Of a stretch of DNA of 64,000 nt, positions 22,665-64,000 are shown in pieces. Within the stretch, counting starts at the first letter, position 1. Every line of letters begins with the position of its first letter. Both the position numbers and the translations under genes were made by a program. Source of the stretch: Naegleria gruberi (lineage: Eukaryota); NCBI GenBank assembly GCA_000004985.1, contig GG738910.1; one strand, 5' to 3'. The notes under the pieces were generated by a model. That model was not told where the DNA came from. It did not search any database and saw only the letters and a list, made by a program, of their open reading frames with translations.

Positions 22665-23400
22665 TAATAGGATATTTCTCAAGATTTCAAAATCTCGAAT
22701 ACACCATAAAACAGCAAACAATGAATAGAGTACCGACTATGTATTGCTTACATCCTACCTATATACTTTTCATCATAGGAGACAATGTAGGTGATGTGAA
22801 ATTTAATTAAAATCAGAAATATCAAAATCTTCATGATTTCAACGAAACACGACGAAATAATTGGCACGGTACATCTACAATAGTACTAATAAAAGTTTAT
22901 TAATGTTTCAAGATGATTGACTGTGTACTTTTGGCATGAATCATGATTGGTGACCATGAATAACCCGAAGTTGACAAAAACACAAAATGATGAAAATTGA
23001 AAGTTTTCCAAATTATCATGTGAATCTGGCAGTGATGATGATTTTAGTGAAAATATTGAATTTCACTAAAATATTACTATTATCAGATTTATTTCCACAA
23101 ATATTACTATTATAATGATGATAAATAACAATGATGATGGTTGGTAGTTGTTCCGATGATCATGTACCAACTTGGATTTTTCCAAATAATAAAATTATGA
23201 AGGAAAAATAAAATTATTTCCAAATCATGATGAAAGATTAAATTCCAAAAATTACTATTAATACTATTATTTAAATCATGATGAGATGATGTGGTGAAAT
23301 TCTTGGAGTTAATAGATGTGAAACTACTCCAAAAATCAATAGAGTTGTGATGTACCTGATCAACATATTTTTAAAAAAAATAGAGACAGTTGACAAAACA
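22665..23400 (-). repeat. Dispersed repeat family R, long (A-type) sub-family; inverted copy between the 14150..22405 and 23745..37050 genes
   Basis: Reverse complement of the 53690..54580-type sequence. For example, 22665-22700 is the reverse complement of gctgttttatggtgtattcgagattttgaaatcttgagaaatatcc, and 23050-23330 is the reverse complement of the ttggagtgatttcacatctattaactccaagaatttcaccacatcatctcatcatgattt segment. Confidence 0.7.
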
Positions 23401-23744
23401 AAAAAACAACAACAAGCTCATCACCACCTGCTAAATAATTATTTATGATGAAGACCTCCATTTGCTTCCCATTACTACATTCAAACCACAACATGGCTGT
23501 ACATTATAGTAAAGGTTCATGTTCAACTACTACTTTGTTGCTAGAAGAACAAGATGTGGCTGAAGGTGTTGAACGCCTGTCTCCTCTTGTTCTAAACCTT
23601 CGGCTCGACTTCATGCCACCAGTGTTGATTAATAACATTTACTGTCCAAATATAAAGTGGTGTACTTTGTCAGGAGCGTATGGACTGAAAAGGAAATGCA
23701 GAATCGAGATAATGTTTATATTATATAAACTGAACCTTAAAAAA

Positions 23745-37050: not shown

Positions 37051-37610
37051 TAAATATTACTGTATTCTCAAACATTCGAAATGTTCAAAAATAAGGGGTG
37101 TATTCCAACAGTGTGACGTAGTGGATTTCCAGACCTCTTTTTCAGGGTAGTTCAACTCCAGCTATTTTGATATGAGCTGATGAAATACCTTCTATCTCAA
37201 TTAATTTGTCAGATATTGAAGTAATAAATTGTACAGAGAGAGAATATATCACTGGGAATCTATCTTCTTCTAATGAATGTTTCTCATCCCTTATTCGTTG
37301 AATATAATAGTAAAGTATCACAAATATTAAAGAACAATAGTGAAAATTACAGGAAAAGATAATTATCTGGTGGATGAATGACATGCTATTCGTGATGTTT
37401 CAGTGAGAAGACAATATCCACATCATGAGAAAAACAATAAAAACATGAAAATATCAGATATCCATGAATTTCACAAACTATGCTATAAGACTCGAAATTA
37501 TACATTTAATAACATAATAAACATTATGAATTGTTGTTTTATTGTTGTTTGATTTGTAATTGGGCTATGAAACTCTGGTAACATCAAATATCAGAACTTG
37601 GTAAATTGAC

Positions 37611-38183
37611 AACATGAAAATCTGATAATAAATATGATGTTTATTATCTATTTAAATAGTAGTACTAAAAGACATGATTCAAGTTGGTGAAGTACATGCT
37701 GAGTTATGGTCCATGTACTTTTTCAAAATTCACATGTACCTATCCCTATCATAAATTGCCCAAAATTGATAAGAGAAAGTTCTCCTACCTACTATTGACC
37801 ATTCCGAACAATACTATATTGACAGTTTTCCAACTTGTTCAGTAGATCCATCAGTGATGATGAATTTAGTGAAAATTTTGACATTTCACCAAAATTATAT
37901 TACTAAAAATTAATTTCCACAAATACTATTATTATATTGATGGCAAATAACATTGATGATGATTGGTGAATGATCCGATGATGATGTACCAACTTGTGAT
38001 TTTCCATGATGAAAAATAAATTCCAATTTCATGATGATAATCCACCAATAAAAATTACTATTATTACTACTATATAGATCATGTTGAGATGATGATGTGA
38101 AAGTTTGGTTGTTTCATGATGTAAAACCACTCCGAAAATCATCAATGTTAAATATTTTTTAAACTTGGTTTTTGAGTAGAATG
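37611..38183 (-). repeat. Dispersed repeat family R, B-type; about 70 bp downstream of the 3' end of the minus-strand 38254..43920 gene
   Basis: Near-identical to 45932..46507, and the reverse complement of 12540..12975. Confidence 0.75.
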
Positions 38184-38253
38184 TTGAATATTTTTTTATG
38201 AAGTTTGTTGTGAGCGAGGTATGTTGTAGATTGCTGAAAAGAACAAGAGCCAT

Positions 38254-41200
38254 TTAAACAGACTTCATTTCAACTCCTTGTTTTGAGGAATTTGTAGTTT
38301 CTGGTTTCATTCTCTTAACAACACAATAACCAAAAATTCCCAATACAATAAAGGCAATAATGATAAAGCAAATAATCAAAAAAGCCCACAAAATCCAGAA
38401 TAACTCAGAGATTCCCTTTGGAGTTTCAGGATTAACTTGTTTTTCAATTGGAACAGATGATAAAATACCAACTCTAACATTTTCTGAACATTCACATTGG
38501 CCAGAATTAGAATTGAAGGAGAATTTACATGAAGAAGCATCAATGACTTGACCATTTGTAACTTGAATGCACGAATAAGTTGCCTTATCATTAAAAGTTT
38601 GTGTAAGTGGCAAGGAATGAGTTATTGGAGAGGAATAGTTTGTAATAGATGTTGAGAATTTAATTTCAGATAAATCAGAGACAATAGTATTAGTTGTACC
38701 TTCTTGTTGAGGAGTTACATATTGAGAAACATCCTTAATAATCATCCAAATGTAATTGACTGGCTTTCTGAGAGAGACACTTTGTAACCTTTGAGAAACA
38801 GTTGAAGGAAGAGTTAATGAAGTTTGACTTTCTGTCAAAACTTGTGAATCAAAAGTATTCTTAAATTGCTTGTTGAATTGATGAACTGCAAAATTAGGTT
38901 CAAACTTGAAAGATGATTGACCAACAAGAACCTTTCTTGAAAGTAATGAAACCACCATGTGACAACTTTCCATCAATTCTGAATAGTCATACGAAGGCAA
39001 AGTCTTTAAATAAGAATGCATGGAATTGAGGGACGAAAGCAACAACCTTTCAACACCAACTTCAAATTGGAATAATGGAGTGTTTTCAGCATCATTCAAG
39101 GTTGACTTGATAATATTCATACTCATGTTATAGACATTAGCAGAAACGTAACTCTTCAACATAGATTCAATACCGAACATAATGTTAGTAAAAAACCTTC
39201 CAGTTATCTTTTCTCCATTTTCATTCTTGACTTGTTGGGAAGAAAAGAAAGCAGTAGCCAAATCTTGAGTAATTTCATTCAAAATTTCATAATCTTCCTT
39301 TGTCATTCTACAGTCAAATGTTGTGTAATCAGCCTCACAAACACATTTTCCATTAACCAATGAACCATGTCCAGAACAATCTTTCTTTACACTTCTTGAT
39401 TTAGGGGCGAGAGAATCTGTCATTCTCTTGAGGACTCTTGAAATGATTGCAGAATTGAAAACAGATCTAGCATAATCACCAGTTGGTAATAATAAGGTGA
39501 TGGCGTTCCATTTTGTCATGTACTCCTTGATATCCTTTACCTTTGATACATATGGAGCTGTAATTTGAACTGATTTCTTGGAAAGAGTTGTTGCAGATGT
39601 TTCAGTATCAATAACCTTAACATACAGTTCAAGATTATTACCAGAATTTGGAGTTGGAAGTTTTTGGTACAATTCTTCATCCTTTGATAAGGTAATTAAA
39701 GCACCTGAGAAATCATCAATAAAACCATATTCGAAAGCATAAGTCTTCTTATCATTTTGACAATTTTCACAATTGAAAGTAAAGATTGTGGTCAAAGCAA
39801 TACCAGAAGTTGGACTAATGGCACAACTACATGCTTTTGGAGGTCTGTTAACAGAGAAGGAATAAGAATATGATGTCTTTTGATTATTTCTCTTATCCAA
39901 GATAGTTAATGAAATGGTATTAGAACTACCTTCATCCAAATATTGAGTATCCAAAATTAGAGAATTTGACAATGATGAACTGATACTCATTGGTGATGTT
40001 AATATAGCATCAATAGCCTTGTCATTCAATAACCATGTTCTTGAGATGAATTGATCTATATTTAAATCACCATTAATAGTGACAACCAATTGAATATTGA
40101 CATAATCTCCCTTATTAACCTTTGAAGAAGATACTTGAACAACGGAGATCAAAGGTGGCATGATTAAATGTTCTGCTTGTTGTGGAAAATTCAAATCAAC
40201 TGATGATTGAACAAATCTACTTCCCTTTCGAATAGTGAGGCTAATTCTAACATTTTCTGCTGAACCAAACATTGACTTTTCAATCTTGTATTGTTCAAGA
40301 AAACCTTGAGACAAGTAATTAACAACATCAACTGGACAAACAGTATTAGTAACAGTGTCCACACATGTCCAAGAATAAGTTGGTTGAACATTTTCAGATT
40401 CTGGATCAGTGAAATCAATTCCAATGGTACTGTATTGAGGAGTAGAATCTAAAACATACATGTTCATTGAGAGTGCTTGAGCTACAGTGTCGATAGTGAC
40501 AAGAGCTGTTGAAAATTTGTTAACATTAGAAGTATCGAAAGCAGAGACTTTGAAAACATATTGTCTTGTTTCAATGGTATTGAAATTGGTAATCTTTAAA
40601 TTCTTGAATGAATCAACTGTGAATTCTACTTGAGGACCACTGATTTGTGTCCATGTGTAATCAATATTTGCAGCAGATTCCATGCATATTGGAATGGACA
40701 GCTTCTTCTTGAATGAAATTGGAACGTCACTAGTCTTGACAGTAACTGAACTACTTTTATATAAGCCATCAATGGAAACAACTGGAACAGCATAGGTAAG
40801 TTTGGTGAAACTGAATTGAATCTTATCAACCAATGAATAAACTTGACTAGTTACAGCCAATTCAAATTGATGAACACCAGCATTCATACCAGAATAGCTA
40901 ATATTCAATTTACTTGGGGAAGCAAGAGTAGAATCCAATAACTTTTGAAGTTCTACCTTATTTGGTGATGACAATACAGTCCATTTGAAATTCAATGTCT
41001 TTCTATCAGGGGAATAACTTTCAGAAGCATCAATTAAAACATCTTCACAACTTCCATAAGTGTCCTTAGCTCCAGATATTGTGGCAATCGGACTCTTTGG
41101 TGATAAAGCACCTTGGACAGTAAATGCCAAATATTGAGCATTGACATTATTTGATTCAAAGTATAAATTATTCAAAGAGATACTATCACCTGCCTTCAAT

Positions 41201-43920
41201 TTGTAGTCCGTGTTAAGTTCAATTGAGAATTCAAACGTTTCCTTGTTAGACCAGTAACATTTTGGATTAGTTCCAAGAAGATCAATACTCTTCAACAACT
41301 TGTTACAATCAAGAATCATACTATTAGTATATAAAGAAGAATAAGATGCAGGTGCAATAACCTTAAATGTCAAACCAGTCAAATCATCCATAAAAAGAAC
41401 TGGTCCAATAATCTTTGTTGAACACAATTCACCATAAACTCCATCTGCACAGGTAGAACAAGATTCACCCTTCCAGAAACCTTTCTTGTTATCTGCATAA
41501 CAAGTACATTGTTCAAGCTCATTACAATAACCATTTCCACTACAAGTAGTTGAGGCATTACATTTAACCAAACTATTACACATAGCTCCTAAATAAGGAG
41601 AAACACATGCTGAACAATCTGCACCAGTCCAATAACCTTTGCCAGCTATGTTATCACAGACACAAATATTCAAATCTGTACATTGACCATGTCCAGAACA
41701 AACAGATGAAGCATTGGAAGAAATGCCACCACAAGTGAATTGAGCACAATGACTTCCGTAATATCCAGATTGACAAGAACAATGATCGAAAAAATCACAT
41801 CTACCTTTTCCATAACATGCTGACGCATTTGTTGAGGCAGTTCCATAACAATCAAATTGACTACAATCATATCCAGTAGTATCCATCTAAACAGGAGCAA
41901 TTATTTGGGGAGATGCAACCACCATGTCCATAACATGCTGAACCACTTGTTGAGGCAGTTCCATAACAATCAAATTGACTACAATCATTCCCGTAGTATC
42001 CATCTAAACAAGAACAATTATTTGGTGAGATGCAACCACCATGTCCAGAACATGCTGATGCATTTGTGGAGGCAGTTTCGTAACAATCAAATTGACTACA
42101 ATCATTTCCGTAGTATCCATCTAAACAAGAACAATTATTTGGTGAGATGCAACCACCATGTCCAGAACATGCTGATGCATTTGTGGAGGCAGTTTCGTAA
42201 CAATCAAATTCACTACAATCATTTCCATAATATCCAGCTAAGCATGAACAGTTATTTGGTGAGACACAACGACCATAACTAGAACAAACTGAACCACTTG
42301 TTGAGGCAGCTCCAAAACAATCAAACTCAGCACAGTCATTTCCGTAATGTTCGTTAGAGCATGAGCAATTATTTGGTGAGATGCAATCACCATGTCCAAA
42401 ACAAACTGAACCACTTGTTGAGGCAGTTCCAAAACAATCAAACTCAGCACATTCATTTCCATAGTATCCAGAGGTGCATGAACAATTATTTGGTGCAATA
42501 CAATAGCCATTTCCAGAGCAAGCTGATGAATTACTTGGTGAAATATCAAAACATTTGAAAGAACTGCAATCTGATCCACTATATCCAGCTAAGCATGAGC
42601 AGTTATTTGGTGAGAGACAGGTTCCATGAACAGAACATGCTGATGCACTTTTTGAGGCAGTTCCAAAACAATCAAATTGGCTACAATCATTTCCATAGTA
42701 ATCGTTTGAGCATGAGCAATTATTTGGTGAGAGACATATTCCTTGAGAAGAACAAACTGATGAAGAAGTAAATAATGTACCAAAACATTCGTATTCACTA
42801 CAATTACTACCATAGTATCCATAGGTGCATGAACAATTATTTGGAGCAATGCAACTACCATGACCAGAACAAACTGATGCATTACCTGGAGCAATGTCAT
42901 AACATTTGAATAAACTACAATCAGCACCACTGTATCCAGATAAACAGGAGCAATTGTTTGGAGCAACACAACTTCCATGTCCTGAGCAAACGTTGTGGTC
43001 AGTATTCAAAATATCACTACAATTAAAAAGTTGACAATCTGCACCAAAGTAATTTGTTTCACATTTACAAGTATCTATGGCTGTACATGTTCCGTGGCCT
43101 GAGCAAACAGTTGAGTTGTCACCTGAAATTCCATTACATGTTGGATATTGACAAGTGTTTGGAGCAACACATGTGGTATATTGAGGACATGCTTTTGGAT
43201 GTGTGGCCACAATACCATTACACTTTGGAGTTTGACAATTTGAACCACCCCAAAGTACACCATAATCTGTCAAGCTGCCAGGAGGAAAAAAAGTATCCTT
43301 TCCAAACCCATGGAAAGGAAAAGTTAAACAAGCACCTTTAGTATTGTTAGCGAAATAATCAGACACTTGAAGTACTAACCTTCTAAAGAATAAAGAACCA
43401 TGTTCCCATCAACTTGGAGAACAAATTTGAAAGGTGGAGACTGACTAGCACACTCACCAGTTTTCATGGCTTCCCTGTGTTGATTCAAATCTGCCTTTTC
43501 CGTGTTACCGTCGTACAATTTAAGAGAACCAGTTTGTGTTAACACTAACTTATAACCATCAGTTGCTGGGCCGAAAGTAGAACTATACCGAGTCATTGTT
43601 CTGAGACCTATCTGAATGAGACTACCATCATCGTTCAAGATTAAAGTCAACTTTCCATCAGCAGATGTTAATGCTTTAGTTGCATAGAGAATTGGTGATT
43701 GTTCAGTGAGGCCTGTTTTTTCTGAAAGATCAACACAGAGGCAGCTGTTTTCACCATAGCAAATATTCCCTCCACAAGTCGAATTGTCTGTTCCAGGAAT
43801 TCCATTACAAGTATATGAAGTAACCTCACTGATTATGAAAAGCAAAAGGATTACCAACACCGACACGAACAGTTTCATGTTGTGGATTTTTTTTAAAGTC
43901 GAATTTTCAAATTGAATCAA
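38254..43920 (-). CDS. Large (about 1,870 aa) secreted type I membrane protein. Domain order: signal peptide, bulb-type (GNA-like, beta-prism II) lectin domain, about 19 tenascin-type EGF repeats, laminin-type EGF, PKD/REJ-like region, CxC-ISP module, GPS-like motif, TM, tail ending in KSV. It has one intron and one apparent +1 frameshift
   Basis: Exon 1 is 43920..43380 (MKLFVSVLVILLLFIISEV signal peptide). The lectin signatures are GKLTLILNDDGSLIQ, YKLVLTQTGSLKLYD and FKFVLQVDGNMVLYS (QxDxNxVxY type). A 44-nt intron at 43379..43336 (GTTAGT...AAAG, phase 1) joins ...LYSLE-G-ACLTFPFHGFGKD in frame. The EGF array is then continuous to 41867. At about 41884-41890 (tactacTggatatgattgt) one extra base breaks the repeat consensus ...CSCLDGYYG(N/Y)DCSQFDC..., and the downstream 1210-aa ORF (41886..38254) continues the same array in the other frame. 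Further landmarks are the ACSCAISPTSGIALTTIFTFNCENCQN motif, GQCECSENVRVGIL juxtamembrane, and TM at about 38330-38400. Confidence 0.72.
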
Positions 43921-44394: not shown

Positions 44395-45890
44395 CTGTGC
44401 AAATAACTTAGAAAAATATTTCAAAAATATTGGATCAACATCAGCTGTTGATTCTTGGAGTGATTTCACATCTATTAACTCCAAGAATTTCACCACATCA
44501 TCTCATCATGATTTAAATAATAGTATTAATAGTAATTTTTGGAATTTAATTCTTCATCATGATTTGGAAATAATTTTATTATTTGGATAAATTCAAGTTG
44601 GTACATGATCATCGGAACAACTACCAACCATCATCATTGTTATTTATCATCATTATAATAGTAATGTTTGTGGAAATAAATCTGATAATAGTAATATTTT
44701 AGTGAAATTTAATATGTTCACTAAAATCAGCATCACTGCCAGATTCACATGATAATTTGGAAAACTTTTAATCTAGTATTGTTCAGAATGGTCAATTTCA
44801 TCAGGTAAAATCACTTCCGAACATTTTCCTATTGGTTATTATGATGTCAAAATGTAAATGGACTATATCTCAACATGTACTTCACCAACTTGGAAAATGT
44901 CTTTTAGTACTACTATTTAAATACATAATAAACAATATATTTATTATCAGTTTTTCATCATTTTTTGTTTTTGTCAACTTCGGAATATCTGTGGAAATGT
45001 TTTTCCCGTATTTTTGCAATGCTCCTTACAAAAAAGGAAATATTAAATTTAATACTTAGTGAAATAAAAATATTATTTATTATTCTTGTTCTAATTGATG
45101 TTTTCTACAATATTCTGTTTTATTGAATATCAGTTATTTGTATTAACCAAGAAAACATGCTCGTCTTACTACCACATATGAAAATTTTGAAATCACTTTT
45201 CTCGATAAGTAAAGAGCCAAATCCGTAACAAACTTGATATTATGATTGTTAACATAATTAATAATGACCATACGGTATGTTTCTCTAACATCCAGTGTTG
45301 TTATTGAGATATGCTTTGTTGAAGTTGAGTGAATTTGCTTAAGTAAATTACTTGGCGCATCCAATTACCCCTACAGGTAAATCAGCTTTGGGAGCATTCC
45401 ATGTTTTTTGGGAGCATCACAAAAATGCGCCACAGATATTCATGATAACAAATCATGATTCATGCCAAAAGTACAAAGTCAATCATCTTGAAACATTAAT
45501 AAACTTTTATTAGTACTATTGTAGATGTACCGTGCCAATTATTTCGTCTTGTTTCGTTGAAATCATGAAGATTTTGATATTTCTGCTTTTAATTAAATTT
45601 CACATCACCTACACCATATTTGATGATGTAAACTAGTCTAGTTGCATCTAAATAATCCATTGTTGCTTCTCTAATCATGCTTTATTGTTATTCAGTGTAT
45701 TCAGGATTTAGAAATCTTGCGAATTATCCTGAGGTTATTCTTCATATAAATATGATTCCTCATATCATGATATGAGGAGGTATTGATATCATGATTGTTT
45801 GGAAGTGTTGTACAAATTTTGGACATTTTCTGAATCGAAATCAGGTAGAAAGAGTCAAATCTTTAACACCATATAAAATATAACTGTTTT
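44395..45890 (+). repeat. Dispersed repeat family R, A-type; copy interrupted by a nested insertion (44989..45435). It lies about 470 bp upstream of the 5' end of the minus-strand 38254..43920 gene
   Basis: Collinear with 53690..54745 and 56213..57285 except for the 447-bp insertion. It contains a perfect 20-bp palindrome cctcatatcatgatatgagg at 45758..45777. Confidence 0.75.
44989..45435. mobile_element. MITE-like non-autonomous insertion nested in repeat copy R (A-type), with imperfect terminal inverted repeats and a 4-bp ATAT target-site duplication
   Basis: The uninterrupted copies read ggaatattcatgataac. Here the sequence reads ggaATAT[ctgtggaaatgtttttcccgtatttttgcaatgctcc ... gggagcatcacaaaaatgcgccacag]ATATtcatgataac. 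The termini CTGTGG...CCACAG are inverted, with an internal matching atttttgYRatgctcc. There is no coding capacity, and the element is about 447 bp. Confidence 0.45.
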
Positions 45891-45931
45891 TAATTGAAGT
45901 AAGCTAAATGATAGAGATTGTTGCCCGACAA

Positions 45932-46507
45932 CATGATGAAAATCTGATAATAAATATGATGTTTATTATCTATTTAAATAGTAGTACTAAAAGACATGAT
46001 TCAAGTTGGTGAAGTACATGTTGAGTTATGGTCCATGTACTTTTTCAAAATTCACATGTACCTATCCCTATCATAACTTGACCAAAATTGATAAGAGAAA
46101 GTTCTCCTACCTACTATTGACCATTCCGAACAATACTATATTGACAGTTTTCCAACTTGTTCAGTAGATCCAGCAGTGATGATGAATTTAGTGAAAATTT
46201 TGACATTTCACCAAAATTTAGTACTAACAATTAACTAAAAATTAATTTCCACAAATACTATTATTATATTGATGGCAAATAACATTGATGATGATTGGTG
46301 AATGATCCGATGATGATGTACCAACTTGTGATTTTCCATCATGAAAAATAAATTCCAATTTCATGATGATAATCCACCAATAAAAATTACTATTATTACT
46401 ACTATATAGATCATGTTGAGATGATGATGTGAAAGTTTGGTTGTTTCATGATGTAAAACCACTCCGAAAATCATCAATGTTAAATATTTTTTAAACTTGG
46501 TTTTTGT
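45932..46507 (-). repeat. Dispersed repeat family R, B-type; inverted relative to the adjacent A-type copy at 44395..45890, and about 450 bp upstream of the 46962 gene
   Basis: Near-identical to 37611..38183. Confidence 0.75.
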
Positions 46508-46961: not shown

Positions 46962-49900
46962 ATGAACCTTAAAAAAATGAAAACATTTCTTGTTTGCTGC
47001 TTGATTTTAATAATCATTTGCACTGTCTCATCNNNNNNNNNNNNNNNNNNNNNNNNNNNNNNNNNNNNNNNNNNNNNNNNNNNNNNNNNNNNNNNNNNNN
47101 NNNNNNNNNNNNNNNNNNNNNNNNNNNNNNNNNNNNNNNNNNNNNNNNNNNNNNNNNNNNNNNNNNNNNNNNNNNNNNNNNNNNNNNNNNNNNNNNNNNN
47201 NNNNNNNNNNNNNNNNNNNNNNNNNNNNNNNNNNNNNNNNNNNNNNNNNNNNNNNNNNNNNNNNNNNNNNNNNNNNNNNNNNNNNNNNNNNNNNNNNNNN
47301 NNNNNNNNNNNNNNNNNNNNNNNNNNNNNNNNNNNNNNNNNNNNNNNNNNNNNNNNNNNNNNNNNNNNNNNNNNNNNNNNNNNNNNNNNNNNNNNNNNNN
47401 NNNNNNNNNNNNNNNNNNNNNNNNNNNNNNNNNNNNNNNNNNNNNNNNNNNNNNNNNNNNNNNNNNNNNNNNNNNNNNNNNNNNNNNNNNNNNNNNNNNN
47501 NNNNNNNNNNNNNNNNNNNNNNNNNNNNNNNNNNNNNNNNNNNNNNNNNNNNNNNNNNNNNNNNNNNNNNNNNNNNNNNNNNNNNNNNNNNNNNNNNNNN
47601 NNNNNNNNNNNNNNNNNNNNNNNNNNNNNNNNNNNNNNNNNNNNNNNNNNNNNNNNNNNNNNNNNNNNNNNNNNNNNNNNNNNNNNNNNNNNNNNNNNNN
47701 NNNNNNNNNNNNNNNNNNNNNNNNNNNNNNNNNNNNNNNNNNNNNNNNNNNNNNNNNNNNNNNNNNNNNNNNNNNNNNNNNNNNNNNNNNNNNNNNNNNN
47801 NNNNNNNNNNNNNNNNNNNNNNNNNNNNNNNNNNNNNNNNNNNNNNNNNNNNNNNNNNNNNNNNNNNNNNNNNNNNNNNNNNNNNNNNNNNNNNNNNNNN
47901 NNNNNNNNNNNNNNNNNNNNNNNNNNNNNNNNNNNNNNNNNNNNNNNNNNNNNNNNNNNNNNNNNNNNNNNNNNNNNNNNNNNNNNNNNNNNNNNNNNNN
48001 NNNNNNNNNNNNNNNNNNNNNNNNNNNNNNNNNNNNNNNNNNNNNNNNNNNNNNNNNNNNNNNNNNNNNNNNNNNNNNNNNNNNNNNNNNNNNNNNNNNN
48101 NNNNNNNNNNNNNNNNNNNNNNNNNNNNNNNNNNNNNNNNNNNNNNNNNNNNNNNNNNNNNNNNNNNNNNNNNNNNNNNNNNNNNNNNNNNNNNNNNNNN
48201 NNNNNNNNNNNNNNNNNNNNNNNNNNNNNNNNNNNNNNNNNNNNNNNNNNNNNNNNNNNNNNNNNNNNNNNNNNNNNNNNNNNNTAACTCTAAGTACAAT
48301 GGTGATTATCAATATGCAACAAATGCCAATTTGAATTATCCATTGGGTGTTTTGATTACACCTAATGGAGAAATGATCATTTCAGAAACATACGGTAACA
48401 GGATTCGCAGAGTATTAACAAATGGAACTATCATTCCACTGGCAGGGAGTGGAAGTTCAAATGATTGTGCAGGTATTACAGCATCTAACACTCCATTGGT
48501 AAGTCCAAAAGGAACTTATTTTAGTGCGAATGGAGATATTTATGTAGCTGAAACTCAAGGTCATAGGATTAGTAGAATTTCAAAGAATGGAATGATTGAC
48601 TCTATTGCTGGTACAGGTAAATTTGGTTTTAATGGAGATAATTTATTTGCTACAGATACACAATTATCAAATCCTTTTGCAGTTGCCTTTGATCTAGAAA
48701 CCCAATTGATTGTCTCAGATTCTGGTAATCATGTCATTCGTAAAATTCTTAGAAATGGAACAATGGTCATTATTGCTGGAACTGGACAATCAGGATATAA
48801 TGGAGATGGAATTGATGCTAAGATTGCAAAATTAAATAATCCATCAGGTATTGTTGTGGATTCTAAAACTGGTGAGCTTTTTATTGCTGACACTGCTAAT
48901 AATAGAATTAGAAAGATTTTAACAAACGGTACTATAATAACTATTGCTGGAACAGGTGAAACAGGATATAATGGAGATGGAATTGATGCAACAAGCGCTC
49001 AAATAAGAGGCGTGTATGGTATTGCCCTTGATGTTAATTCTGAGCTCTACATTGCTGATGCTAATAATTATAGGATTAGAAAGATTTTATCAAATGGAAC
49101 AATTATAACTATTGCTGGAAATGGAGGCTATGGTTTCATTGATAATGTTCTTGCAACAAATGCCAAACTTGCTTTCGTTAATGGAATTGCTGTAGATACG
49201 AACGGTGAAGTTTATATTACTGAGTCTGAGAATGGATTTTCAAATCATCGAATTCGTAAAATATTGACAAATGGAACCATTATAACATTTTCAGGAACTG
49301 GTTCAAGAGGTTATTATGGTGATAATGTGGAAGCAGCTGATGCCAAATTCTATACTCCTTATTTCGTTTCTGTTCGCCAAACAACAGGTGAGGTGCTTAT
49401 TTCAGATACTGGAAATAATTTCTTGAGATTGGTTTCAACAACTCGTCTATGCAATGGAACTCTAGCAAGTGATCCTATGGTTTGTAGTGGGCACGGAATA
49501 TGTTATTTAACAGATGTTTGCACTTGTAACCCTGGCTATATTGGTTCATTATGTGATGTTGTGGCATGTAATGGTTTCAATTCGAGTGATCCTAGAGCTT
49601 GTAATGGACATGGTATTTGTGAAGGACCAAACATTTGTAATTGCACTACAGGTTATGTTGGTTCATTTTGTGATGTTTCTTTGTGTTATGGTTTCAATTC
49701 GAGTGATTCAAGAGTTTGTAATGGACATGGTATTTGTGAAGGACCAGATATTTGTAATTGCAGCACAGGTTATATTGGCCCACTATGTGATGATGTGGCA
49801 TGTGATGGTTTCAATTCAAGTGATTCAAGAGCTTGTAATGGACATGGTATCTGTGAAGGACCAAACATTTGTAATTGCAGCACAGGTTATATTGGTTCAT

Positions 49901-52900
49901 TTTGTGATGTTGTGGCATGTGATGGTTTTAAAATAAGTGATCCTAGAGCTTGTAATAGACATGGTATTTGTGAAGGCCCAAACATTTGTAATTGCACTAC
50001 AGGTTATGTTGGTTCATTTTGTGATGTTTCTTTGTGTTATGGTTTCAATTCGAGTGATCCTAGAGTTTGTAATGGACATGGTATTTGTGAAGGACCAGAT
50101 GTTTGCAATTGTACCACAGGTTATGTTGGTTCATTTTGTGATGTTGTGGCATGTGATGGTTTCAATTCAAGTGATTCAAGAGCTTGTAATAGACATGGTA
50201 TTTGTGAAGGCCCAAACATTTGTAATTGCACTACAGGTTATGTTGGTTCATTTTGTGATGTTTCTTTGTGTTATGGTTTCAATTCAAGTGATCCTAGAGT
50301 TTGTAATAGACATGGTATCTGTGAAGGCCCAAACATTTGTAATTGCACTACAGGTTATGTTGGTTCATTTTGTGATGTTTCTTTGTGTTATGGTTTCAAT
50401 TCGAGTGATCCTAGAGCTTGTAATGGACATGGTATTTGTGAAGGACCAGATGTTTGCAATTGTACCACAGGTTATGTTGGTTCATTTTGTGATGTTTCTT
50501 TGTGTAATGGTTTCAATTCGAGTGATCCTAGAGTTTGTAATGGACATGGTATCTGTGAAGGCCCAAACATTTGTAATTGCAGCACAGGTTATATTGGCCC
50601 ACTTTGTGACGNNNNNNNNNNNNNNNNNNNNNNNNNNNNNNNNNNNNNNNNNNNNNNNNNNNNNNNNNNNNNNNNNNNNNNNNNNNNNNNNNNNNNNNNN
50701 NNNNNNNNNNNNNNNNNNNNNNNNNNNNNNNNNNNNNNNNNNNNNNNNNNNNNNNNNNNNNNNNNNNNNNNNNNNNNNNNNNNNNNNNNNNNNNNNNNNN
50801 NNNNNNNNNNNNNNNNNNNNNNNNNNNNNNNNNNNNNNNNNNNNNNNNNNNNNNNNNNNNNNNNNNNNNNNNNNNNNNNNNNNNNNNNNNNNNNNNNNNN
50901 NNNNNNNNNNNNNNNNNNNNNNNNNNNNNNNNNNNNNNNNNNNNNNNNNNNNNNNNNNNNNNNNNNNNNNNNNNNNNNNNNNNNNNNNNNNNNNNNNNNN
51001 NNNNNNNNNNNNNNNNNNNNNNNNNNNNNNNNNNNNNNNNNNNNNNNNNNNNNNNNNNNNNNNNNNNNNNNNNNNNNNNNNNNNNNNNNNNNNNNNNNNN
51101 NNNNNNNNNNNNNNNNNNNNNNNNNNNNNNNNNNNNNNNNNNNNNNNNNNNNNNNNNACCAAAATTCAAATGTTTCGACTCTAGTTACCATTCAAACAAG
51201 CTCTGAACAATTATATGCAAACCTTTTTATTGATACTATTTCCAGTAAGAAGGTAACACTTGTGGTTGCAAATCAAGATTTAGAACAAAGTAATGAAGCG
51301 GAAACTTGGAGTTACGTTTGTCAAGATGAAAATTTTACTAATTGTGGTCAGACAATTGCCAATATTCTCTCGAATTATGCTTCTATCAAATCTAAAACTT
51401 TGGAATTATCAGCAGATAATTTCCCATCCATTGATTCCACATATTCAATTACTTTAAACATTGTAAAGGGAGTAAGAAGTTTTTCATCTTTAATTTCCTT
51501 GAAATTTCCAAAAGAAAACCAAAAACTTCCTCCAATAGTTAACTTATTGAATGTTATTCCAAATAGAAACAGATTAAGCAAATCTGAATTTTTGAATTTA
51601 CAAATTTCTGTCACTAACAGTGATGGATTGGATGTCAAAAATTTAAAAAGAGAATGGAAATTGAATGGACAATCAATTGATGATAACTATTTAACCAAGA
51701 TGAGTACAGCATTATCAGATTCTAACAATATCGTTTTAAGTATCACCTATTTAGATGAAGGTTCATCTAACGTATTGACATGTCAAGTCACAGATTTGGA
51801 TAGTCAATTGTCAAGCACTTTTAGTTACTCATTTTCAATTATTACATCACCTAAACCATGTCCATGTTCAGTTTCACCATCTACAGGATATGCGTTAGAA
51901 ACAGAATTTACCTTCTCATGCACAAACTGCCAAAATAAGGACAATACTCTAGCATTTAGTCTATCATTTGTAGATGATAAATCTGGAGCTCTTATTCCAC
52001 TTGTAATTGAAGGTGGAAACACATTTACCACAAAGCTTCCATATCCAATTTCCAATCCATTAATGTTTGACATTACAATTGTTGACATAGAGACACTTGC
52101 ATCAGTTCAAAACTATCAAAACATTCAGATGATTTTACCAAAAGCAAGTTCTGTTCGTGAAGTCAAAACAAAAGTTGCCAAGTGGAATACTTTCCAAACT
52201 TCACTTCAACAAAATGATTTGAGAAGAATGATTTTCTCATCTGCAATTATTTCTAGAACCTCTGAGGCAATGATTTCAGCAATCAGTGGAAGAAGATCTA
52301 TTTGTTTGAACGGCGGAGTTTATAATTCTCAATTAAGAAAATGTATTTGTGTGAATGGATACAAAAAGAAAGATTGCAGCCTTAATGAAGAAGATTTCAC
52401 ATTGTTAACTGAATTTAAAGGTGAATTATTTAATAACTTTTTATTTGCATTCAAAAACAGACAAGAACAAATGTCTGAAATGTATATCATCTATCAATTA
52501 TATGGCTTGGATTCACTTTTATCAAATTATGATGAATTGAATGCTGAGATGTTTGCAAATGGAGTCCAATTCTTCAAGGATTTAATATCTTCCGCTGTTA
52601 GTGTTTCTAATTTACATCTAAGACCTGGAATTGACAAATTAACTCAAAATATTATCAACTCACTTTACAGATATTTGATTTATAATGGATGTATTGAAAA
52701 GGAATGTTTGAGAGATCATGTTATTGAAATGATAAGCATGTTGAAAGAAATTTCACAACTATTACTCAGATCCAAACTTGTAGGAGAAAGTGATCTGAAA
52801 TTAGACACTGATTTTATGGTGTTATTGACAAATAAGAACTATAGATACCATTTCAATAGTTTGAAAGTTCAAAATTTAACTTTACCTACCAATGATGAAG

Positions 52901-53529: not shown

Positions 53530-53689
53530 CCTGAATCACTAACCCATATCAAATGGGACCGGTCCGGATTCTTGGATTTTTTCAAGAATGCGTTCAAACA
53601 CGCTTCAATAAACTTTTTTTTATTAAAGATTCTTGGCGTGAAACCTAGTTCGAAATAAACCCATTTTAAAAATTATTCAATATTTTGTG

Positions 53690-54745
53690 AAGAACTTGGA
53701 AAAATATTTCAAAAATATTGGATCAACATCAGCCGTTGATTCTTGGAGTGATTTCACATCTATTAACTCCAAGAATTTCACCACATCATCTCATCATGAT
53801 TTAAATAATAGTATTAATAGTAATTTTTGGAATTTAATCTTTCATCATGATTTGGAAATAATTTTATTATTTGGAAAAATTCAAGTTGGTACATGATCAT
53901 CGGAACAACTACCAACCATCATCATTGTTATTTATCATCATTATAATAGTAATATTTGTGGAAATAAATCTGATAATAGTAATATTTTAGCGAAATTCAA
54001 TATTTTCACTAAAATCATCATCACTGCCAGATTCACATGATAATTTGGAAAACTTTCAATCTAGTATTGTTCAGAATGGTCAATTTCATCAGGTAAAATC
54101 ACTTCCGAACATTTTCCTATTGGTTATTATGATGTTAGGTATGTGTATATTTTCAAAATGTAAATGGACTATATCTCAACATGTACTTCATCAACTTGGA
54201 AAATGTCTTTCATCACTACTATTCAAATACATAATAAACAATATATTTATTATCAGCTTTTCATCATTTTGTGTTTTTGTCAGCTTCGGAATATTCATGA
54301 TAACAAATCATGATTCATGCCAAAAGTACACAGCCAATCATCTTGAAACATTAATAAACTTTTATTAGTACTATTGTCGATGTACCGTGCCAATTATTTC
54401 GTCGTGCTTCGTTGAAATCATGAAGATTTTGATATTTCTGTTTTAATTAAATTTCACATCACCTACATTGTCTCCTATGATGAAATGTATATAGGGAGGA
54501 TGTAAGCAATACATAGTCGGTACTCTATTCATTGTTTGCTGTTTTATGGTGTATTCGAGATTTTGAAATCTTGAGAAATATCCAGAGGTCATTCACCAAA
54601 TAATTATAATTTCTCTATAAATGAAATGAGGAGGGATTCATGCTATGATTATTTAGAAGAGCCACATAGAGTTTGGATACTATCTGAACTGAAATGAGGT
54701 AGAAAGAGTACAATCTTCAAATGTATTATAATATGTCCTCTCAAT
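53690..54745 (+). repeat. Dispersed repeat family R, A-type, about 1.05 kb; about 160 bp downstream of the stop of the 46962..53529 gene
   Basis: Collinear with 56213..57285 and with 44395..45890 minus the insertion. Its first about 575 bp are homologous (about 75%) to the B-type copies. Confidence 0.75.
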
Positions 54746-55299
54746 ATTGGATTTCGAAAATGGTAAGGCAATCCTAAAGTCATCTTTCAAACACAATACA
54801 GTAGCACATGATAATATTTCTACTTTGTTTATTGGTACAAATTGGAATGACTTTTATTGCCGCTTGTTTTTTGGTTTGCTTACCTTGAGAAGCCACCATG
54901 AAGAGAGTTCTCCCTTTGCTTCCTTCCACTACATCATCTAGATAAGTACCTGATACATTAAAGTGAAGTTAATGTACAAGAACTAAGAAGTACTTCAATC
55001 TATGATTGTTATCAAAATCCTAACTATTCGGTGAGAGATAAAACCTAATTAATAGCGATGCAATAGACAACCGGTTAAAGATGAATCTCTTTCCCATTAA
55101 ATCAATGATTCATAAATAAGGGACTTGTGATTGCTGTATACTATGCATCTTCCTGATAATGTAATTGACCTCGTTTAGTGTAATTCACTGAGATATTCTA
55201 AAAAAGGTGGAGATAATTATTATTTCCTCAAGCACTCCTTGTTCCTTTGCTCTTCAAATACTAGTTAATTAGTGTTGTAGATTAAACAGCTCAAAAAGA

Positions 55300-55833
55300 A
55301 TGCTTCCAAACAATTTAACCAACCAGCAGACACTATTATTCTTGTTGCATCTGATGCTACAGAACTCTAATAATGAAGTGAATCATGATGATTCGTTCCT
55401 TCCGGGCTGGGAAAAAGATGATAATAATTGTTGTCCAGTGAATCAATCAGCACTATCCAATGATAATACTTACACTAATAATACAAATAATATTGTGTTT
55501 GGGAAGGAAGAACCCAAATTACAACCATCCAAGATAATTAAGAGGAATAATAACTCCAATATTACTAATAACAAGCAGCATTCAATGAGAACGCGCCCTA
55601 AGGTTATCAACCCCTCTACTGTAAATACTTCTCCGAGCATTAGCAATAATACTACATTCTTCATCATATCGACCATTGAATCTATTAAGGAAGAAGAAGA
55701 ATTGAAGAAAACTCTTCCTAAACGACCAAGAGGAAGACCTCGTAAGAATAGTTTCGAATCAATGTCCAATTCTTCTTCTTCATCTTCAAATTGTTGCTCT
55801 TCTTCCAGCAGTAAACGAATCAAAAGGGAGTAA
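55300..55833 (+). CDS. Hypothetical small Asn/Ser-rich protein with an AT-hook-like motif (KRPRGRPRKN); it possibly continues into the 55836..56087 ORF
   Basis: 177-aa ORF. Its PRGRPRK core is typical of AT-hook DNA-binding motifs, and the remainder is low-complexity. The adjacent ORF in another frame could be a second exon, but no convincing splice pair was found. Confidence 0.4.
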   Translation: MLPNNLTNQQTLLFLLHLMLQNSNNEVNHDDSFLPGWEKDDNNCCPVNQSALSNDNTYTNNTNNIVFGKEEPKLQPSKIIKRNNNSNITNNKQHSMRTRPKVINPSTVNTSPSISNNTTFFIISTIESIKEEEELKKTLPKRPRGRPRKNSFESMSNSSSSSSNCCSSSSSKRIKRE

Positions 55834-56212: not shown

Positions 56213-57285
56213 AAATAACTTAGAAAAATATTTCAAAAATATTGGAACAACATCAGGTACATCACGACTCTGTTGATTCTTGGAGTGATTTCACATCTAT
56301 TAGCTCCAAGAATTTCACCACATCATCTCATCATGATTTAAATAATAGTATTAATAGTAATTTTTGGAATTTAATCCTTCATCATGATTTGGAAATAATT
56401 TTATTATTTGGAAAAATTCAAGTTGGTACATGATCATCGGAACAACTACCAACCATCATCATTGTTATTTATCATCATTATAATAGTAATATTTGTGGAA
56501 ATAAATCCGATAATAGTAATATTTTAGTGAAATTTAATATGTTCACTAAAATCATCATCACTGCCAGATTCACATGATAATTTGGAAAACTTTCAATCTA
56601 GTATTGTTCAGCATGGTCGATTCCATCAGGTAAAATAACTTCCGAGCATTTCCCTATGGAAATCATGATGATAGATTCATGTATATTTTCAACATGTACA
56701 TGGACTATATCTCAACATGTACTTCACCAACTTGGAAAATGTCTTTCATCACTACTATTCAAATACATAATAAACAATATATTTATTATCAGTTTTTCAT
56801 CATTTTGTGTTTTTGTCAACTTCGGGTTATTCATGGTCACCAATCATGATTCATGCCAAAAGTACACAGCCAATCATCTTGAAACATTAATAAACTTTTA
56901 TTAGTACTATTGTAGATGTACCATATCAATTATTTCGTCTTTTTTCGTTGAAATCATGAAGATTTTGATTTTTCTGTTTAATTAAATTTCACATCACCTA
57001 CACCATATTTTGTTGATGTAAACTAGACTAATTACATGTAAATAATCCATTGTTGATTCTCTAATCATGTTTTATTGTGTTTTTTTTTGTGTATTTAGGA
57101 TTTTGAAATCTTGCACAGTATTCTGCGGTTATTCTTCATATAAATATGATTCCTCACTTCATGATATGAGGAGGGATAGATAGCATGATTGTTTGGAAGT
57201 GTTGTACAAATTTTGGACACTCCCTGAATTGAAATCAGGAAGAAAGAGTCAAATCTTTAACACCATATACAATATGACTTTTGAC
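56213..57285 (+). repeat. Dispersed repeat family R, A-type; the most telomere-proximal copy
   Basis: Collinear with 53690..54745 and 44395..45890. It contains an imperfect version of the 20-bp palindrome (cctcacttcatgatatgagg). Confidence 0.75.
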
Positions 57286-58759
57286 GATGGTTTTGATCTT
57301 GTTGTTCATACCTCAAACATTGGAAAAGGAGAATGATAAACACCTTTTCTAAACATATTCTATATTTATTGAAGTTATGACCATAAGAATAAATTTCGCA
57401 TTACCAAACCATGCGAATTTATTTAGTATGAAATTTATTTTGCATAAATTTTATTCGAATATAATTGCCTGGAACAGGATGGTGATGTTATAGAGCTGAA
57501 ATTGGGAAAGGAATTGATTAATGATAATTATTCAAACATTAATGCTGGACCAATGATTCAAAATTCGAATGGACTTTGGGAATTGTTGCTTCAACATGGT
57601 TTTGAATTGAAGGAAACCAGAAATTACAATTATCCAGATGAAACCTTGAATTTCTTAAAATTAGAAAGATGTTGTTGATGATTTTCAACGTTAGGGATGA
57701 ACCAAACACTTGGAAACTAGTTTGATTTGATATTCCCCATGCAACATGTTGTGGCACAATGTTTGAGGTCCGTTGGTGTTAATAAGGCGATGGTCTATAA
57801 GGCGAAATACCATTGTTTATAGACCTTGATAAAATTTGATTTGTGTCAGCATGCCAAAACGAGACCATTATTGAAAATTCAAAACGCAAGTGCTATTTTG
57901 CAAGCACAATTAGTCTACTGTAGTAGATTTACAGCAATTATAATATAGTAATGTAACTCACCAAATAGAGCACCAACAAAGCAACGTGAAAAGTGGTGAA
58001 CACTAGGTGTTTGGTTCAATGTTCAGAAGGTAATATTGATTGTTTTTTATCCATCCTCAATCACTCCTCAACAAACCAATTCATTCCCGTTAGCATGGAT
58101 ATATAAAAAGTTATTAAGGCGAAAATAAGGTCTAAATTTAGGTATATTATCGAATTCAAAACTATTTTGTTGCACTATACTAAAAGAAACACTGCAGGGT
58201 TTGGTTAGGATTCAGAGTTGATTTATTTGGGTTATTTAAGAGATTACTTAGTGAAGATTCATATAATTGATTATATTTCTTATCATCTATAAATGATGTA
58301 ATTTTGATGGTTTCATTTCTTATATTGATAGATATTTAAAGGTCAGGTCAGAACTAACTTTTGAAATATGGACTTTAAGAATTCAAATGTTTGGGACGTG
58401 AATCTACTCATTAGATTGTGTTGGTATTGCTAATAAAGGAACATTTCATTGATTTATTGATCATAACGGTCAAATTGAGTTGAATGGAAGTGAATCAAAT
58501 GTTGATTGATCGTGGATGGGTAGTTTCGCCACGAAGTGGTGCAACTACCAACCTTTGTAGATTGAATCAGGTTGATTTGAATGCAATATGAATAAGTAAC
58601 ATTATCAAGAGTGATTATTCACCAATTCAATGATCAATATTCATTATTCGGTTTGATTTCAATCAATAGCTTGATCAACAAGCTTTGAATTAATATTCCA
58701 GTAATTAACGGCAGTCTATTTTTAAATTTAATCAAAGACCATATATAGTAGCTTGACTT

Positions 58760-60870
58760 TTGTGATCTGGAAACTATCTAGATGTGTTCTATATTGAATA
58801 ATCTATTTGAAAATGAGAAGAATTAACTCTTCTATTGAGTTTTATTGGTATTGAATGGTATTACGGTTTATAATAATCTACACAGAAATCACTCTTGAAA
58901 TATAAACTGTACTACAATGTATGAGAAACATAATGGTGGTAGAATTAATCAATAACTCGTTGAAATGACTGAGATGGAATGTAAACTATGGTCTATTTGT
59001 CATGTAATGGTGACTAGACAGTGTCAATTTCATCAAATTATTTCAAACTGATTACAATCAATAAAAACCCGTTCCATACATCAAACATGTCATATAGAAT
59101 GAGTTCCAATATTTAATATTGTGAACTGACTCTGCTGGATACCATCTCTATAAATATAACAAGATGTAAAGTGTCAACATTCAATTACACATGCATGTAA
59201 CTATGGAGAATCATCATTATATCATCTAGATAGGAAGTATTTCAAGTTTCAGTGGAATTGACTGTCTAGATATTGAGATGTGTATACTAAGGTTGAAGAA
59301 CTGTCACCTTCACTGATTACTGACATGAATATGACAATTGAATATATTATTGCTGCATTAATAATTCATTGTTCAATTATTATGATATGATGGTAAAATT
59401 TAATTTTGGAATTAAGATACTTCCTTATTGATTACCTTAGAGGTTCCTTAGTTGACTTGAAGATATTGAGCCATGAATATGAAACTTTCTCAGATCGTTC
59501 TCCTCATGAAGAGAAGCGTATTCATATTAGATACTTGTATGATATTTTGTAAACTGACTGAGATGGTATATATTCTATATGTTGAAATGTGACAATTTGA
59601 CAGATTGTTATTATTATCATACTGAATTCAATTCTAACAGACTAAAATTGATACCATATATACAATAGTGTGATTAAACATATCTGGTAAACTTACATGA
59701 TGGTTGGATATACTTTCACTGAGATAGAGTGTACACTTGGATATAATCACTATTGACATTGAACATTAACTGACTCACTCATTGAAAGTAATACGAATTG
59801 TTTTCAAACTATATACAGTGTACTTAATTGATGTATACTCTATCTGGTATCAATTCTAGTTTGATTGTATGTATAATGAGCGAGTTGGAGCATAATCTAT
59901 GATATCATGTCAAAGTTCTATAGTATATTGATAGAGTTGACATCTCGACATCTACTGAACCAGTACTTATGAAATTGATATCATAGGCTAATTAGAGAGT
60001 CTACGTATCATGATATCAATTTCAGTGAAAATGGAGTTGTTTATGTACCTTTCAGATTTCCGTCCATTCTCTTGAAATATCACCATGTACTATCTACTGG
60101 ATGCATTTCTTGAAATAAAAATATATAACTTGATGAAAGTCCACTTTATTTGAGATGTAGAACACGATATTATCATTTATTTTGAGATTGGTAATTTTTC
60201 CTATAGTATCATCCTTATTATCTTAATTGACCTAAAGAGGTCAAGGAGAGATATCAAATCATAAAATAAATGATATTTTCGAGATGTACTATCGATTTCC
60301 AATCTATTGATATGTATTTTGTTGATTGAGGATTTGGTTCTCTATATTCAAGATTTCCTACTGCTCCTAAGTCAACCTTGATATTTCACCCTTTACCTTA
60401 CTGAAAGATAGAATATTCACCAAAATGTCTGAAATTTGAACCATATACAGTATTTGAGATGTTGAACATGATGGTAATGTTTCATAGAGTGGTCATTTTC
60501 CAGATTTTCATCCATGTACACAGTTCAACCATAAACTATCAACATTTACCTTTCCATGGTACCATTTCTGATTCTTATGATATGAAATTGAATTCTACAT
60601 CATTATAGATCATCTACATCATGTTGGTAAAGTTTCAATAGTGGTTCTTTTTCAAGATTTTATCCTTTTCATACCTAGTTGACCATGTGTGGTTGAGGGA
60701 AGAAATCTTTAAATATGAAAGTTAAAATAAATTTGATATTCGATGTTTACTCATCAAATGGAACATTTTCATATTAGGATTCAATATGTTTTGATGAGAA
60801 ACTCAAAAGTTATAGTTGACCTCTTGTACTTCACAACTTCCCTTTTCACTTCATACTGGGTTTGGTACCT
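58760..60870. repeat. Subtelomeric tandem duplication, copy 1 (about 2.1 kb unit with no ORFs, AT-rich, with internal degenerate 100-120 bp sub-repeats)
   Basis: Aligns with 61076..63395 at about 85-90% identity (for example 58761 tgtgatctggaaactatctagatgtgttctatattgaataatct versus 61079 tagtctggaaataggctagatgtgttccatattcaataatct). A roughly 200-bp spacer at 60871..61075 is not duplicated. Confidence 0.7.
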
Positions 60871-61075
60871 GTCATTATCTCTCTGGTTTGGGATCCGCAC
60901 ATGCTCAGATCTTATAGCTTATCAATGTGATGTATAATAGTCTGATCTACTTGTGGTAAAAACACGAAGGTGTAATATTCTATATTTATTGAGATAATCA
61001 ATAAAGTTTAGTATTTGTCAGAAAAACTTGCCCTCTCGCCAAGAATTCATTTTGCCATATTTGGGATCTGGACTT

Positions 61076-63395
61076 TTATAGTCTGGAAATAGGCTAGATG
61101 TGTTCCATATTCAATAATCTATATGAAAAAAAGAAGAAATAAAATTAACTCTTGAATTGAGTATGTAACGACTATTGATATTACTATATATGGTATTTGG
61201 ATAATAACTTTCACAGAAATCATTCATGAAACATAAATTGTACTAAAGTGTGTTAGAAACATAATGGTGGTAAACCTGATCAATAACTCGTCGAAATGAC
61301 TGAGATGGAATGTAAACTATGGTCCAAATGTCATGTATTTGTAACTAAACAGTGTCAACTCCGCCAAAGTGCTTTAAACTAGATTGATATCATCAAAAAC
61401 ACTTCTAGACATCACATATGCCATAAAGAATGAGTTTCAATATTTGATATTGTGAATAGACTCTGTTGGATACCATCCCTATAAATATAACGAGATGAAA
61501 AGTGTCAACATTCAATTTCACATACATGTTACTATGAAGAGTCATCATTATATCATCTAGATAGGTAATATTTCAAGTTTCAGTGGAATTGACAGTCTAC
61601 ATATTGAGATGTGTATACTAAGGTTGAAGAAGTGTCACCTTCACTGATTACTGACATGAATATAATAATTGAATATATGATTCTTGTATAATTAATTCAT
61701 TATTCAATGATTTTGATATGATGGTAAAATTTAATTTTGAAATTAAGATTCTTCCCTATTGATTACCTTATATGTTCCTTAGTTGACTTGAAGATATTGA
61801 GCCATGAATATGAAACTTTCTCAGATTGTTCTCCTCATCAAGAGGAGTGTATTCATATTTGATACTTGTATGATATTTTGTAAAATGAATGAGATGGAGT
61901 ATATTCTATTTGTTGAAATGTGACAATTTGACAGATTGTTATTATAATCATATTGAATTCAATTCTAACAGACTAAAATTGATACCATATGTATAATAAT
62001 GTGATTAAATGTATCTGGCAAAGTTACATGATGATTGGACGTACTTTCACTGATATGGAGTGTACACTTGGATAAAAGCACTATTGACATTGAACATTAA
62101 CTGACTGACTAATTGAAAGTAATACGAATTGTTTCCAAACTATATACAGTGTATTTAACGGATGTATACTCTATGTGGCATCAATTCTAGATTGATTGTA
62201 TGTATAATGAGCGAGTTGGAGCATAAGCTTTGATTTTATGTCAAAGTTCTATAGTAAAATGATAGAGTTGACAACTCGACATCTACTGAACCAATATTTA
62301 TGAAATTGATATCATATGCTAATTAGAGTGTCTAGATATCATGATACCAATTTCAGTGAAAATGGAGTTGTTTCTGTACATTTCAGATTTCATCCATTCT
62401 CTTGAAGTATCACCATGTACTATCTACTGAATGCATTTCTTGAAATGAAAATATATAATTTGAAGATAGTCCACTTTATATGAGATGTAGAACACGATAT
62501 TATCATTTATTTTGAGATTGGTAACTTTCCCTATAGTATCATCCTTAATTGTCTTAATTGACTAAAAAAGCTCAAGGAGAGATTTCAAAACATAAAATAA
62601 AATATATTTTCGAGATGTACTAATGATTTCCAATCGATTGATATGTATTTTGTAGATTGAGGATTTGGTTCTCTATATTCAAGATTTTCCTCCTGATCTT
62701 CCAAGACAACCTTGAAATTTCACCCTTTACCTTACTGAAAGATAGAATATTCTCTAAAATGTCTGAAAATTGAACCATATACATTATTTGAGATGTTAAA
62801 CATGGTGGTAAAGTTTCATAGAGTGGTCATTTTCCAGATTTTCATCCATGTTCACAGTTTACTAATTGGTATGATAGAGTTGAAATCATGAACATGAAAG
62901 TGAAAATAAACTTGATTTTCTATCTCTACACATCGAATGGAGCATTTTCATGTATATATTGTTGGTTGAAGTGATGTATTTGATAGAGTTGGTCTGACTT
63001 GTCTTTCTCTAAAGTCAACCATAAAATATCAACNNNNNNNNNNNNNNNNNNNNNNNNNNNNNNNNNNNNNNNNNNNNNNNNNNTTCTCATGGTACCATTT
63101 CTGATTATTAGGACATGAAATTGAATTCTATATCATTCTAGATCGTGTACATCACTTTGGTAAAGTTTCAATAGGTGGTCCTTTATCAAGATTTCCACCT
63201 TTTCATCATAGTTGACCATGTGTGGTTGAGGGAAGAAATCTTTAAATATGAAAGTTAAAATAAATTTGATATTCGATGTTTACTAAACAAATGGAACATT
63301 TTCATGTCTGGATTCAATATGTTTTGATGAGAAACTCAAAAGTTATAGTTGACCTCTTTTACCTCACATCTTCCCTTTTCACTTGATACTTTTAT
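61076..63395. repeat. Subtelomeric tandem duplication, copy 2; contains a 50-N gap at 63034..63083
   Basis: See copy 1. Similarity ends at about 63395, about 300 bp before the telomeric array. Confidence 0.7.
63034..63083. other. Assembly gap (50 N)
   Basis: Run of N. Confidence 1.
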
Positions 63396-63690: not shown

Positions 63691-64000
63691 GGTTTAGATT
63701 TTTAGGCTTGGGTTTTTAGGCTTGGGTTTGGGTTTGGGTTTGGGTTTGGGTTTGGGTTTGGGTTTGGGTTTGGGTTTGGGTTTGGGTTTGGGTTTGGGTT
63801 TGGGTTTGGGTTTGGGTTTGGGTTTGGGTTTGGGTTTGGGTTTGGGTTTGGGTTTGGGTTTGGGTTTGGGTTTGGGTTTGGGTTTGGGTTTGGGTTTGGG
63901 TTTGGGTTTGGGTTTGGGTTTGGGTTTGGGTTTGGGTTTGGGTTTGGGTTTGGGTTTGGGTTTGGGTTTGGGTTTGGGTTTGGGTTTGGGTTTGGGTTTG
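63691..64000 (+). repeat. Telomeric repeat array. Degenerate lead-in (TTTAGATTTTTAGGCTTGGGTTTTTAGGCTTGGG), then about 46 perfect TTTGGG units (63724..64000) running to the window end; the G-rich strand points 5'->3' outward
   Basis: Perfect hexamer periodicity to the last base. It is preceded by variant repeats and by non-coding subtelomeric tandem duplications. Confidence 0.75.

Follow-up and report, generated by a model that had tools for sequence, protein, structure and literature searches.

The window, by which we mean the whole 64-kb stretch of Naegleria gruberi DNA that was analysed, is the terminal 64 kb of its scaffold, with ~32% G+C and three N gaps. A pure (GGGTTT)n array at 63715-64000 closes the window, preceded by degenerate telomere-like units (63631 on), and TTTGGG has been put forward as the candidate telomere repeat of N. 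gruberi (PMC3622300). The region had been called a subtelomere in an earlier note on this DNA, and correctly so, the telomeric (GGGTTT)n array starting ~18 kb from the element described below. Just inside the telomere, at 58739-63390, a subtelomeric repeat of 2.33-2.53 kb occurs twice in tandem, the two units being 88-91% identical; a 50-N gap (63034-63083) lies within this tandem repeat region.

Large intronless ORFs with EGF, NHL and REJ domains fill the window. Two of these large surface-protein genes contain 117-bp (39-aa) tandem repeats of EGF-like units, at 41686-43010 and 49351-50586, the latter array abutting an N run (50612-51157), so that its assembled length may not be the true one. 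Elsewhere, at 2036-3697 on the plus strand, lies an intact 553-aa glycosyltransferase-61 (GT61, EOGT-like) ORF, the best database matches of which are Naegleria and Willaertia paralogues at 44-50% identity. The neighbouring ORF (3775-4473, minus strand) matches an annotated N. gruberi predicted protein from end to end at 100% identity, whereas for the GT61 ORF the database contains no identical or near-identical protein. The GT61 gene therefore seems to be missing from the publicly annotated proteins of N. gruberi.

Among the large genes recurs an intergenic module, the left 550 bp of which is found by self-comparison in seven copies in the window: four that we designate A-D, and three more divergent ones at 12518-12974, 37608-38206 and 45927-46506. 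The seven copies are ~550-1100 bp each, with 74-98% identity. Several of them begin just past the stop codon of an EGF/NHL/REJ gene, oriented alike relative to it, and the module is probably a shared 3' flank that was duplicated along with these genes. Copy A is situated in the intergenic region upstream of an EGF/REJ gene (38254-43920, minus strand), at a distance of ~0.5-2 kb. The left half of this copy (44419-44964) and a divergent copy at 45930-46495 (74% identity) form an inverted pair, with the insertion and copy A's right half enclosed between them. The features of the insertion and of the corresponding empty sites are as follows.

44395-45900, plus strand: host repeat copy A of the intergenic module, which carries the insertion (from alignment and self-comparison)
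44985-44988, no strand: left target copy, ATAT, equally readable as TA at 44986-44987
44989-45435, no strand: inserted element, 447 bp, 30% G+C, non-coding, with CTGTGG...CCACAG termini
44989-45039, plus strand: left terminal inverted repeat, made up of CTGTGG, a 12-nt surplus AAATGTTTTTCC and then the block complementary to the right end
45387-45417, plus strand: two direct copies of TTTGGGAGCAT, at 45387-45397 and 45407-45417, 20 bp apart
45397-45435, minus strand: right terminal inverted repeat (from local alignment against shuffles)
45436-45439, no strand: right target copy, ATAT (from the sequence reading and the repeat-copy alignment)
54284-54299, plus strand: empty site in copy B, CTTCGGAATATTCATG; copy B spans 53683-54760
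56820-56835, plus strand: empty site in copy C, CTTCGGGTTATTCATG; copy C spans 56220-57300
22955-22970, minus strand: empty site in inverted copy D, CTTCGGGTTATTCATG on the minus strand; copy D spans 22630-23420

The sequence at 44985-45439 reads ATAT-CTGTGG...CCACAG-ATAT, in a context of CTTCGGA on the left and TCATG on the right, and this agrees to the base with the 447-bp insertion and the borders that had been proposed for it. A MAFFT alignment of copies A-D places a single 451-column gap, with sharp edges, in B, C and D; the surplus in copy A is 451 bases, comprising the 447-bp element and the second ATAT. Copy B presents the site as CTTCGG-AATATT-CATG, with one ATAT at 54291-54294, while in copies C and D it is CTTCGG-GTTATT-CATG. 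The pre-insertion sequence given in the earlier note, ggaatattcatg, is therefore exact for copy B, but copies C and D differ from it; nor is the element absent from two copies only, as had been stated, since it is missing from three, namely B, C and the inverted copy D.

Hydrophobic ORFs span the empty sites in copy B (54045-54368, plus strand, 107 aa) and copy C (56656-56904, plus strand, 82 aa), and their counterpart in copy A enters the element and ends early. The single family match of these ORFs, to DUF6097, is weak and sub-threshold, and they are unlikely to be genuine genes. No credible gene is interrupted by the insertion. Between copies B and C there is a further ORF (55300-55833, plus strand, 177 aa), Asn/Ser-rich and with an AT-hook-like motif, KRPRGRPRK.

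The duplication of the target is seen directly against the empty sites, and that part of the earlier claim of an ATAT target-site duplication stands. Its length is another matter. The target, GAATATTC, is an 8-bp palindrome with TA at its centre, and three symmetric readings fit the single copy: ATAT with CTGTGG ends, TA with TCTGTGG ends, or no duplication with ATCTGTGG ends. A single copy in a palindromic target does not discriminate between lengths of 4, 2 and 0 bp. We lean toward ATAT as a 4-bp duplication, a target pattern that would be Sola2-like; a 2-bp duplication of TA, as in Tc1/mariner elements, is a possible but less probable reading, and it is unlikely that something other than either of these took place.

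The same four copies bear on the polarity of the event. The flanks of copy A are 96-97% identical to those of B and 92-98% identical to those of C. In the 180 bp to the right of the site there are four positions that unite A and B against C and D (AB|CD), all ≤16 bp from the junction, and one change private to A; farther to the right there are 28 positions of the AC|BD type. One might suppose that the 447 bp were ancestral and were precisely deleted or excised, between the two ATAT repeats, from the other copies, given that cut-and-paste elements can excise and that in a four-taxon comparison with no outgroup the root is not formally placeable. The succession of AB|CD and then AC|BD sites, with few A-private changes, nevertheless makes of copy A a mosaic nested within the family, allied to B at the site and to C farther along on the right, so that a history of loss would require two or more separate events of base-perfect loss (or conversion), and insertion is the simpler account. 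The empty sites, moreover, are without footprint, and even a segment of ancestral presence would still behave as a mobile element. We regard ancestral presence as very improbable. Insertion into copy A after the repeat family had diversified is thus the more parsimonious reading, the parsimony being that of four copies without an outgroup and not amounting to proof. The check for which the earlier note had called, of insertion as against deletion, accordingly comes out on the side of insertion: copy A is nested among B, C and D, with no long private branch.

The relatedness of the copies switches at alignment column ~1300 (copy A ~45615), A going with B on the left and with C on the right. It marks the breakpoint at which two sequence types were joined by recombination or gene conversion.

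As to timing, the words "recent" and "dated", which had been applied to the insertion, go beyond the evidence: the event is bounded only as younger than the A/B split, at ~3-4% flank divergence, and the terminal inverted repeats (TIRs) have already diverged from each other.

The ends of the element are inverted, as had been noted from the letters. The terminal 6 bp are perfectly so (CTGTGG/CCACAG), and beyond the 12-nt surplus on the left a further 33-34 nt align with the right end with three mismatches and two 3-nt gaps. In local alignment the two ends score 31, as compared with a mean of 12.7 and a maximum of 26 for shuffled sequences, none of 2000 of which reaches 31. The second common block, ATTTTTGYRATGCTCC (16 nt), occurs at two places in the 64 kb, with 0.01 expected, and these are the two element ends. 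In all, the TIRs extend over ~39-51 nt, left and right differing by the 12-nt indel and several mismatches, and the copy is hence not pristine. A single-strand DNA fold prediction pairs the two ends; the z-score for the whole element is only -1.9, as is to be expected where complementarity is limited to the ends.

Within the ends lie shorter repeated motifs. Besides the two direct copies of TTTGGGAGCAT near the right end, there is one ATGCTCC motif in the left TIR, at 45019-45025, and GGGAGCAT is absent from the rest of the window. Three of the eight GGAGCAT heptamers of the window sit in the element ends, one left and two right, all of them facing inward. The TTTGGGAGCAT repeats are putative transposase-binding motifs.

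These ends are also what must be weighed when other origins are considered. When the paired LTRs of a retrotransposon recombine, the solo LTR that stays behind is typically of such a size and has a 4-bp duplication; integrases, too, duplicate 4-6 bp of target and make insertions with short inverted termini. One base in from the termini, the element in fact reads TGTGG...CCACA, which resembles the TGTNR of Gypsy/Ginger ends (PMC2836005). This TG...CA is, however, not flush with the duplication, since the extra C and G belong to the insert and are missing from the empty sites; the inverted repeat of ~39-51 nt, with its subterminal motifs, goes far beyond usual LTR termini; and the window contains no related LTR, reverse transcriptase or integrase. 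A solo LTR is in our estimation decidedly unlikely. More improbable still is a one-off insertion unrelated to transposons, whether filler DNA from double-strand-break repair, a piece of organellar DNA or a misassembly in a Sanger scaffold with gaps. The segment is known as a single copy in the available data, and the scaffold does have N gaps at 47033-48284, 50612-51157 and 63034-63083; but filler or misassembly would not give matched inverted termini together with an exact target duplication in a palindrome, and the closest N gap is 1.6 kb from the element.

The element has no evident coding capacity. Its longest ORF, of 73 aa from a TTG start, has no Pfam match above cutoff (the sole match, to Baculo_p74, is sub-cutoff) and no homologue in an index of 5.8 billion proteins. 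The lone match from an exhaustive phmmer search, to a 2733-aa protein, is made up of 17 weak repeat matches and is a summed-score artefact. The statement in the earlier note that there is no ORF is thus right in substance, the longest being one of 73 aa without credible homologue or Pfam family. Comparison of the element with Rfam, together with a tRNA scan, gave no RNA family and no tRNA-derived head.

Searches for relatives were made at several scales. Neither a search with the TIR block nor sensitive blastn finds a second copy or fragment of the element in the 64-kb window, and no ORF of the window contains a transposase domain. Viral, metagenome and prokaryote-genome contigs were scanned with the pattern CTGTGG-N(3-15)-ATTTTTGYRATGCTCC; the eight matches, about the number expected by chance, are in unrelated, mostly bacterial contigs, with similarity limited to the pattern itself. 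A literature search found no paper that describes the element or contains its TIR sequence.

How the element should be named depends on how strictly the term MITE is used. At 447 bp it falls under the size of about 800 bp taken as the MITE criterion, and it has the lack of coding capacity, the TIRs and the target duplication relative to an empty site that are features of MITEs. In the strict sense, a MITE is a member of a multicopy family with an autonomous partner that shares its TIRs, and the present element is known here from one copy. The label "MITE" accordingly goes beyond the evidence, and of the MITE-like insertion that had been proposed, what holds is a TIR-bounded, non-coding element with a target duplication.

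Several known transposon families may be compared with it. The Sola2 elements of Dictyostelium fasciculatum and Polysphondylium pallidum make a 4-bp, AT-rich AWWT duplication, with ATAT listed for P. pallidum (PMC3627910). If the duplication of the present element is read as ATAT, which the palindrome allows along with TA, it fits AWWT; the TIRs are short and imperfect, and the host is likewise an AT-rich amoeboid protist; the published Sola2 TIRs are, on the other hand, 12-21 bp long, as opposed to ~39-51 nt with an indel here. By this analogy, Sola2 would be the best match in the literature for the 4-bp reading.

For the 2-bp reading, the comparison is with the Stowaway-like MITEs of the Tc1/mariner group, which are also small and non-coding with TIRs, and TA-TCTGTGG...CCACAGA-TA is a valid reading of the element. 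The terminal bases of Tc1/mariner elements are usually of the CAG/YAGT type, which those of the element are not, and there is no mariner-like transposase in the window. The repeated motifs within the element ends recall the IR/DR-type ends of Tc1 elements.

Other families were considered and set aside. Ginger2/TDD elements make a 4-bp duplication in an RTATAY target and have TIRs of 50-180 bp with flush TGTNR termini (PMC2836005). The likeness lies in a 4-bp duplication within an AT-rich palindrome and in TGTNR-like bases near the ends, but the target of the element is AATATT rather than RTATAY, and its TGTGG begins one base inside the CTGTGG terminus. Of the PHIS elements, ISL2EU duplicates AT within A|AT|T and has TIRs that start with GG, and Spy makes no duplication at an AAATTT target (PMC4482050). 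The first does not fit a palindrome centred on TA, in which an AT duplication would need asymmetric ends, or TIRs that begin with CT or TC; the second does not fit a target of GAATATTC. Helitrons run 5'-TC...CTRR-3', carry a 3' hairpin, lack TIRs and insert between A and T. They do not match: the element has long TIRs, and the only reading of it without a duplication that starts with TC ends in ...GATA. Naegleria carries Fanzors, and a Fanzor/IS607-related element was considered as well; there is no evidence of one at the element.

Taken together, these observations lead us to view the 447-bp segment as a non-autonomous class II (cut-and-paste, TIR) DNA transposon of N. gruberi, a reading to which we give a probability of roughly 80%. 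What supports it is the exactness of the insertion, as judged from three paralogous sites that are empty, together with the inverted termini, the target duplication and the lack of coding capacity; the points against it are the single copy in the window, the lack of a transposase there, the unequal TIRs, terminal bases that depart from the textbook ends of Tc1/mariner (CAG..), Ginger (TGTNR) and ISL2EU (GG), and the reported scarcity of transposable elements in N. gruberi. The segment is a clean yet ordinary DNA-transposon footprint.

Mechanistically, a transposase encoded elsewhere in the genome would bind the inverted ends, probably at the subterminal motifs that contain GGAGCAT, of which the left end has one and the right end two. 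The element would then be excised, and a symmetric staggered cut would be made in the palindromic target GAAT|ATTC of copy A. Gap repair would double the staggered bases, giving ATAT if the stagger was of 4 nt and the element begins with CTGTGG, or TA if it was of 2 nt and the element begins with TCTGTGG. We infer all three of the central components of this scheme, namely a DDE-type transposase acting in trans, the role of GGAGCAT and the length of the stagger.

The N. gruberi genome is reported to be very poor in transposable elements, those that are classified making up 0.28% of it (preprint 10.64898/2026.06.24.734286), and the family of the element, if one exists, is therefore probably small. 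A more far-reaching proposal would make this insertion the first representative to come to light of an uncatalogued, recently active family of Heterolobosea DNA transposons, for example Sola2-like with ATAT duplications, with a live transposase and a preference for subtelomeric surface-protein arrays; such a proposal is, in our judgement, rather improbable.

The relevance of the element is mainly for the annotation of the Naegleria genome and for research on protist transposons, as a single insertion of textbook appearance. We know of no good transformation vectors for Naegleria, and it is our own suggestion that the element ends, together with a partner transposase, might seed a genetic tool for this genus. 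Should the family prove to be multicopy and polymorphic, cut-and-paste transposition would still be occurring in the transposon-poor genome of N. gruberi, and the element would serve as an insertion marker with which to type strains and to follow the reshuffling of subtelomeric EGF/NHL/REJ arrays.
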